Source: Escherichia coli (GTDB lineage: Bacteria > Pseudomonadota > Gammaproteobacteria > Enterobacterales > Enterobacteriaceae). From it: DNA of 64,000 bases. The stretch lies in NCBI RefSeq assembly GCF_003334405.1, contig NZ_QOWM01000001.1. One strand, 5' to 3'. The translations under genes and the position numbers were made by a program. Below, one piece after another: positions 43,338 to 44,133 of the stretch (position 1 is its first letter; each line of letters opens with the position of its first letter). The notes beneath the pieces were generated by a model, which was not told the DNA's origin, ran no database searches, and saw nothing but the letters and a program-made list of their open reading frames with translations.

Positions 43338-43431
43338 TGTACCGACCGGGCAGTGTTGCTGCCCGGTTCAAACATCATGGGATTCTGTGGTAAACTTCTC
43401 GCGATTTTGTGAAATCCTGGTTGAGGTATCT

Positions 43432-44133
43432 CTGAACACACCGGCACAGCTCTCTTTGCCACTTTATCTTCCTGACGACGAAACCTTTGCAAGTTTCTGG
43501 CCGGGGGATAACTCCTCTTTACTGGCCGCGCTGCAAAACGTGCTGCGTCAGGAACATAGCGGTTACATCTATCTCTGGGCACGCGAAGGCGCGGGGCGCA
43601 GCCATCTGCTGCACGCGGCTTGCGCGGAATTGTCGCAGCGTGGCGATGCGGTGGGCTATGTCCCGCTGGATAAACGCACCTGGTTTGTTCCGGAAGTGCT
43701 CGACGGTATGGAGCATTTGTCGCTGGTCTGTATCGACAACATTGAGTGTATTGCAGGCGATGAGTTGTGGGAGATGGCGATTTTCGATCTCTACAATCGA
43801 ATTCTGGAATCGGGCAAAACACGGTTGTTGATCACCGGCGATCGTCCACCGCGGCAGTTGAATCTGGGATTACCGGATCTCGCGTCGCGACTCGACTGGG
43901 GGCAGATCTACAAATTGCAGCCACTTTCTGATGAAGATAAGTTGCAGGCGCTACAGTTACGCGCGCGTTTGCGTGGTTTTGAACTGCCGGAAGATGTGGG
44001 GCGTTTCTTGCTGAAGCGGCTCGACAGAGAAATGCGCACGCTATTTATGACGTTGGATCAGTTGGATCGTGCGTCGATTACCGCGCAACGTAAGCTGACC
44101 ATTCCGTTTGTGAAAGAAATTCTGAAGTTGTAG
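43432..44133 (+). CDS. hda: DnaA-inactivating factor Hda (AAA+); start assigned to CTG
   Basis: ORF track gives GTG 43387 (248 aa); the accepted product as I recall begins (M)[12 protein letters not shown] from CTG at 43432 (233 aa); AAA+ Walker motifs present. Confidence 0.85.

Follow-up and report, generated by a model that had tools for sequence, protein, structure and literature searches.

Translation of hda, which encodes the Escherichia coli DnaA inactivator Hda, reportedly uses a CUG codon downstream of the annotated start, and the abstract of the 2008 study of Su'etsugu and colleagues is said to propose that CUG may limit the cell to about 100 molecules of Hda. Early work with a long form of the protein was, by the same account, reportedly hampered by its wrong N-terminus. 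Another regulator with an unusual start is IF3, whose gene, infC, initiates at AUU and is autoregulated through IF3 discrimination against non-canonical start codons. Both infC and hda encode essential or near-essential regulators and combine a conserved weak start codon with a good Shine-Dalgarno sequence, but the weak codon of infC senses a feedback loop, whereas the role proposed for the hda codon is only to keep the level low. In E. coli K-12 a CTG start has been verified for a second gene, yfjD, which encodes an unrelated protein; its start was found by conservation and inspection of the ribosome-binding site and confirmed by start-codon mutagenesis (EcoGene 3.0), evidence that comes from fusions rather than, as for hda, from the native protein. 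In its passage on hda, the EcoGene 3.0 paper credits the CTG start to Su'etsugu et al. (2008, JBC 283:36118), and this paper was the sole relevant match when the literature was searched for hda together with CUG or CTG. Initiation at CUG proceeds at about 1-2% of the AUG rate, or at 0.02-3% in other constructs. Cryo-EM of CUG initiation complexes containing a variant initiator tRNA revealed a first-position mismatch, and the same paper, referring to earlier binding work, states that CUG complexes are less stable with wild-type tRNA too.

The gene studied here is the one described by Su'etsugu, Nakamura, Keyamura, Kudo and Katayama (2008); gene, codon and 233-residue product are the same, and we see no difference. 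The CTG start is thus already known, having become settled through the literature and the reference annotation in 2008-2012; protein-level proof of it rests on the EcoGene citation and on the abstract as reported above. Because the reference annotation is already right, the E. coli hda model stays unchanged. What we add is a quantification of the invariance of the CTG, the assignment of an upstream GTG to an extended -10 promoter element, and the connection of a hairpin in the uraA-hda gap to a mapped, leaky 3' end, all of which are refinements and not discoveries.

The locus lies in a 64-kb stretch of E. coli DNA, hereafter the window, whose 43.4-kb region is 100% identical to E. coli K-12 and was matched in all 5426 complete E. 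coli genomes of our collection. Genes run in the order upp, uraA and hda, followed by arsC and bepA on the opposite strand, and uraA was also found 5' of hda in nearly all of 80 related loci. The gap between the uraA stop and the hda CTG spans 94 nt, and an Rfam search of it found no family. The encoded protein is 100% identical to the Hda of PDB entry 5X06 and matches the Hda profiles NF005982 (476.6 bits; cut-off 268) and TIGR03420 (281.4 bits; cut-off 194.8), whose alignments to the 248-residue ORF begin at residues 14 and 21, respectively. Precomputed Pfam matches for the identical protein and its orthologs place an AAA+ DnaA-like domain (PF00308) and an Hda lid domain (PF22688). The features discussed below are collected in Table 1.

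Table 1 Positions of the features of the uraA-hda region, numbered from the first nucleotide of the window
Feature	Position	Strand	Basis or remark
uraA CDS (uracil permease)	42048..43337	+	RefSeq CDS, locus L001 249-1538, mapped onto the window
GC-rich hairpin 3' of the uraA stop	43344..43368	+	9-bp perfect core, 43345-43353 with 43359-43367
GTG opening the maximal 248-codon ORF	43387..43389	+	Not a start codon; supplies the TG of the extended -10
Extended -10 element TGgTAAACT of the hda promoter	43388..43396	+	Invariant columns, mapped TSS
TSS of the monocistronic hda (b2496) mRNA	43403	+	SMRT-Cappable-seq 2618805, reverse strand
Shine-Dalgarno GAGGT, 4 nt before the CTG	43423..43427	+	Spacing, conservation, 16S duplex
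CTG initiation codon of hda	43432..43434	+	RefSeq CDS start, EcoGene 3.0, conservation
hda CDS, 233 codons and TAG, DnaA inactivator Hda	43432..44133	+	RefSeq WP_001307333.1
QLSLPL beta-clamp-binding motif, codons 6-11 from the CTG	43447..43464	+	Numbering of the crystal structure paper
TTG codon 9, nearest downstream canonical candidate, rejected	43456..43458	+	Inside the clamp-binding motif

A preliminary description of the window had noted that the maximal ORF opens with GTG 43387-43389 but that the N-terminus of mature Hda corresponds to a CTG 15 codons further on. Both observations are borne out by the sequence: the ORF comprises 248 codons and ends with TAG at 44131-44133, and the in-frame CTG opens a 233-residue product, MNTPAQLSL..., its next codons being AAC ACA CCG GCA CAG CTC TCT TTG (NTPAQLSL). 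The N-terminus predicted from this start is fMet/Met-NTPAQLSLPLYLPDDETFASFWPGDNSSLLAALQNVLR. The RefSeq MG1655 gene ('DnaA inactivator Hda'), once mapped to the window, begins exactly at the CTG, and EcoGene 3.0 agrees. The paper on the crystal structure of the Hda-clamp complex numbers the residues 1-233 and places the clamp-binding motif QLSLPL at residues 6-11, while PDB chain 5X06_E consists of a 20-residue tag followed by MNTPAQ.... Together with the conservation among 80 species described below, these sources support the CTG as the start of Hda. We conclude that hda is very probably translated from CUG 43432 as a 233-residue protein, that the GTG is promoter DNA, and that the hairpin is a leaky end of the upp-uraA transcript. 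The choice of start matters for the protein, because the N-terminus of Hda carries the clamp-binding motif and a wrong start either adds 15 residues to it or removes half of the motif.

A scan of species-representative genomes yielded 80 Enterobacteriaceae loci with protein identities of 92-100%, which together with the window make up a set of 81 sequences. The codon aligned to the E. coli CTG is CTG in all 80 species, never TTG, GTG or ATG, and from it an ungapped 233-codon ORF runs in each of the 80 orthologs. The nearest in-frame stop lies 4 to 56 codons 5' of the CTG (4-6 codons in 28 of the 80 species), and between this stop and the CTG an in-frame ATG, GTG or TTG is absent altogether in 46 of the 80; in those species, no canonical codon can begin a protein with the clamp-binding motif intact. 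When entropy is averaged over each of the three codon positions, the values from the CTG onward (0.19/0.04/1.06) are those typical of coding sequence, and those of the 45 nt upstream of it (1.10/1.21/1.07) are without periodicity. The preliminary description had put forward the conservation of the 15-codon extension in orthologs as a way to check the start, and the comparison of the 80 species came out in favor of the CTG, in that the extension is without coding-type conservation and coding constraint begins at the CTG.

The triplet itself is conserved beyond what its leucine meaning would explain. Among the 31 columns in which leucine is invariant across the 80 species, only codon 1 keeps a single codon; the other 30 each use 2 to 6 synonymous codons, and TTG is among these in 26. 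Given an invariant first codon and leucine codons that drift elsewhere, the CTG triplet is constrained at the nucleotide level. Across all degenerate columns with an invariant residue, the codon is invariant in 3 of 163. Besides the CTG, codon 4 (CCG, 43441-43443) and codon 21 (AGT, 43492-43494) are invariant in nucleotide sequence, and codon 4 may belong to the initiation region. Variation within E. coli says nothing on the start, because the start region is near-identical among E. coli records (at least 99% identity in 5420 of 5427).

An in-frame CTG alone would be uninformative, because CTG is the commonest leucine codon; the GAGGT located 4 nt upstream raises this CTG above chance, and the comparative and experimental evidence adds to it. 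The duplex of GAGGT with the 3' end of 16S rRNA has a predicted energy of -6.9 kcal/mol, and equal or better binding was found in 2.7% to 7.2% of 20-nt windows sampled across the 64 kb. The gene thus has what is expected of a CUG-initiated gene, an in-frame CUG with a Shine-Dalgarno sequence at working distance. Both parts of this arrangement are retained among species: the GAGGT positions are 99-100% identical, and the spacing to the CTG is exactly 4 nt in 80 of the 81 sequences and 5 nt in the remaining one.

The same layout extends beyond the Enterobacteriaceae. In five of five genomes from other Enterobacterales families (Yersinia, Erwinia, Hafnia, Dickeya and Proteus), the DNA around the CTG reads GAG GTG xTT CTG AAY, so that GAGGT, 4 nt and CTG are all present, and an extended -10-like element is found at -44 to -48 nt in each. 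In these five (loci L082-L086), GAGGT is followed by G, and a GTG thereby stands in frame two codons 5' of the CTG; in the Enterobacteriaceae start contexts listed, inspection by eye found only A, C or T there. Many public gene models outside the Enterobacteriaceae use this GTG and give Hda 235 residues. We consider the GTG unlikely to be a start, as it is the tail of the Shine-Dalgarno sequence. Public models of Hda orthologs (P0001-P0120) have lengths of 225, 233, 235, 238, 241 and 248 residues and longer, with N-termini of MNTPAQ (233 residues), M/VLLNTPAQ (235 residues) or MPLYLP (225 residues), and two species, Hafnia paralvei and Izhakiella australiensis, carry a 233- and a 235-residue model side by side. 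A rule of GAGGT, 4 nt and CTG AAY would let annotators correct the starts of Hda orthologs. In more distant Hda representatives, with 40-64% identity, QLxL stands 1-8 residues from the N-terminus, mostly 3, a placement that fits the 233-residue form, in which 5 residues precede the motif, but not the 248-residue form, in which 20 do. The three nearest hda genes examined outside the Enterobacterales (L087, L088 and L089) are called at GTG, GTG and TTG, none at ATG; these three gene-caller predictions hint that weak start codons may be wider in the Hda family.

Transcript ends were taken from the SMRT-Cappable-seq operon table (Yan et al. 2018), which is given in NC_000913.3 coordinates (g), and converted as window = 43432 + (2618776 - g). 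In support of the conversion, the bepA TSS at 2614009 in NC_000913.2 corresponds to 2615987 in NC_000913.3, an offset of +1978. It also places the upp TSS (2620909) at window position 41299, the G of GATTTTTTTTG, 6 nt after the TATAAT at 41288-41293, which we take to be the classic upp start site. A TSS of a monocistronic hda mRNA maps 7 nt after the hexamer TAAACT, inside a conserved CG(A/T)TTT block, so that the hda-specific 5' UTR is 29 nt long (43403-43431), and this leader RNA is without significant predicted structure (z = +1.1). The operon table further lists a 'novel' read-through operon, b2498|b2497|b2496, transcribed from the upp TSS at 2620909. The TSS list of Kim 2012 has only one entry near hda, supported by 2 reads and located 620 nt upstream, within uraA.

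Between uraA and this promoter lies a hairpin that the preliminary description had placed at 43344-43367 and described as having no U-tract, which our analysis confirmed: the stem is followed by CAAAC, and the E. coli tail, CAAACAUC, lacks the U tract of an intrinsic terminator, although the GC-rich stem-loop of such terminators is there. Including G-U pairs the stem has 11 bp and closes a 3-nt loop; its folding energy of -20.1 kcal/mol (z = -4.4) was equaled in 0 of 200 shuffles. A terminator scan did not report the hairpin, and RNAalifold applied to a MAFFT alignment missed it because the left arm was misaligned; we therefore folded each species separately, which recovered a hairpin of 8-12 bp after the uraA stop in nearly all 80 species. 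These represent 46 distinct stems, with compensatory changes such as CAG/CTG, CGG/CCG, TGG/CCA and CGA/TCG, and the hairpin is positioned 17-19 nt before the promoter TG in 67 of the 80 species. The 8-nt tail contains at most four T in 79 of 80. The gap of about 95 nt usual among these loci is enlarged to 139 nt in Intestinirhabdus alba (L023) and 220 nt in Pseudenterobacter timonensis (L073) by insertions located 3' of the uraA stop and 5' of the conserved hairpin; the inserted DNA folds into extra strong hairpins, and the downstream hairpin, promoter, Shine-Dalgarno sequence and CTG are intact.

The hairpin coincides with a mapped end of the upp-uraA RNA ('novelTTS'), at 2618838 or window position 43370, two nucleotides beyond its stem. 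Of 132 reads that extend to this position in M9 medium, 37 stop and 95 continue, the median read-through being 186 nt. The corresponding counts for rich medium are 30 and 8, with 101 reads stopping no more than 50 bp further downstream. The hairpin is thus a real but leaky element that forms the 3' end of upp-uraA RNA. Given an end 2 nt past the stem, heavy read-through and no U tract, it is better called a leaky end-forming or protective hairpin, and the 43370 end is better accounted for by weak termination, or by RNA trimmed back as far as a protective stem, than by a classical intrinsic terminator.

The read-through gives the alternative that survives best some footing. In that reading, the hda promoter supplies the 233-residue protein and the read-through upp-uraA-hda RNA, which carries the GTG, supplies a minor 248-residue form in addition. 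The RNA exists, and the E. coli GTG is in frame and preceded by a GGGA sequence resembling a Shine-Dalgarno, the pairing of which is weak at -4.0 kcal/mol. On the read-through RNA, however, the GTG sits in a region predicted to pair, and the N-terminal data we examined contained no peptide of the 248-residue extension (no Hda entry was found among the rows examined of the TRAINSPOTTER N-terminomics supplement, where Hda, a very scarce protein, would be hard to see, and the text of the Ribo-RET preprint does not name hda). Nor is there selection for a 248-residue form, because reading frame and extension length vary among close relatives, even within Escherichia, where one locus (L003) has an in-frame stop 13 codons upstream of the CTG. 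We therefore regard a second, longer Hda as very improbable.

Still less probable is that Hda is a 248-residue protein from GTG 43387 and nothing else, as in the original genome annotation. In its favor, no canonical start precedes the GTG in the maximal ORF, the old NC_000913.2 model of hda has 747 nt, many automatic public models of Hda have 248 residues (for example, cluster P0002 with 3510 members), and the position is itself conserved, with GTG in 74, ATG in 6 and TTG in 1 of the 81 sequences. This conservation is explained by another function of the same bases. In our alignment of the uraA-hda gap (A1), which covers 52 species, the invariant columns are T43388, G43389, T43391, A43392, A43394, C43395 and T43396, which read TGnTAnACT, the TG and the hexamer of an extended -10 element, and TGnTAnACT was found in 81 of 81 sequences, with TAAACT as the hexamer in 71, TAGACT in 8 and TACACT in 2. 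The distance from the GTG to the CTG, in contrast, varies from 43 to 49 nt, and the two are in frame in only 12 of the 81. Variable in distance and rarely in frame, the GTG thus owes its conservation to the promoter and not to any role as a codon. It also precedes the mapped hda TSS by 16 nt and pairs weakly with 16S rRNA, as noted above, the 15 codons from it to the CTG are free of coding-type conservation, many species have no upstream canonical start at all, and RefSeq and EcoGene have both dropped the 248-residue model.

As promoter DNA, the element resembles other extended -10 (TGn) sigma-70 promoters. It has a TG one base 5' of a hexamer whose second base is A and whose sixth is T, combines TGnTAAACT with a poor -35 (TTCAAA, 18-nt spacer), and directs transcription that begins 7 nt after the hexamer, within the 6-9 nt at which a mapped 5' triphosphate end is expected. 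It differs in that its hexamer agrees with TATAAT at 4 of 6 consensus positions, and the promoter is called here from the sequence together with the TSS. A simple promoter scan missed it, since just 8 of the 12 consensus positions agree and the promoter depends on its TG extension. We also considered TGTGGTAAA as a DnaA box and dropped it, as its variable middle base fits the TGn of an extended -10 better.

The preliminary description had treated the 15 codons between the GTG and the CTG as leader, a view that holds in part. They are noncoding, but 43387-43402 precede the hda TSS and include the extended -10, so that only 43403-43431 are 5' UTR on the hda-specific mRNA; the peptide string given for these codons matches the translation, with its first residue (M/V) left out.

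A third proposal, that Hda has 225 residues and starts at the TTG of codon 9 (43456), as in some Klebsiella, Serratia and Pantoea models (KPN_02819 of K. pneumoniae, 678 nt, from the Kim 2012 supplement; P0064, P0105 and P0108), has next to no probability, since this nearest canonical in-frame codon past the CTG would cost half of QLSLPL, which the crystal structure shows bound to the clamp, varies among the 80 species (TTG in only 42, CTG in 37), has no Shine-Dalgarno pairing to speak of (-1.7 kcal/mol), and follows codons 2-8, which are strongly conserved in a coding pattern. Separately, we considered a translation-coupling mini-ORF (ATG TTG AGG TCT CTC TGA) whose TGA would overlap the CTG; it is present in Klebsiella and Kluyvera-type sequences and not conserved, and E. 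coli has TGG in place of the TGA.

Translation of the 233-residue Hda from the CUG very probably proceeds as follows. The hda-specific mRNA begins at 43403, past the GTG, which overlaps the TG of the extended -10, and its short, unstructured 5' UTR presents a well-placed GAGGU that positions the ribosome on the CUG, which the initiator fMet-tRNA reads with a first-position mismatch. With initiation at CUG only ~1-2% as frequent as at AUG, very little Hda is made. Such low output suits a protein whose task is to inactivate the replication initiator DnaA and of which the cell needs only about 100 copies. Leakage past the hairpin allows some read-through upp-uraA RNA to carry hda as well. The CUG may accordingly be kept by selection to hold Hda low. 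A more far-reaching proposal is that CUG, the fixed GAGGU spacing and the extended -10 form a low-output module throughout the Enterobacterales, whose first C is selected against stronger starts; because IF3 discriminates against CUG, Hda synthesis, and thus DnaA inactivation, could putatively be coupled to the translational state. If true, this would link translation capacity with the control of replication initiation, but we regard it as rather unlikely.

Several observations concern neighboring parts of the window. The convergent spacer between hda and arsC (44141-44275) contains two REP-type palindromic units, …cggatgcggcg…gccttatccg… and …ggccggataag…cgcatccggca…, which score below threshold against the REP-derived Rfam family naRNA4 (31.2 and 28.5 bits; gathering score 59.5). 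At the upp promoter (41288-41310), the perfect TATAAT at 41288-41293 is followed by GATTTTTTTTG; the region looks like what is presumably the classic site at which start-site switching responds to UTP and reiterative transcription takes place. The maximal-ORF artefact seen for hda is common to both upstream genes. For upp, the longest ORF begins at GTG 41309 and the real start, judged by translation (MKIVEV...), is ATG 41336; for uraA, the longest ORF begins at TTG 42006 and the RefSeq start is ATG 42048. A further 3' end was mapped by SMRT-Cappable-seq in rich medium between upp and uraA (NC_000913.3 2620201, window position ~42007), at which 24 reads end and 4 pass, and 154 end in the next 50 bp; in rich medium, a large part of upp transcription thus seems to halt before uraA.
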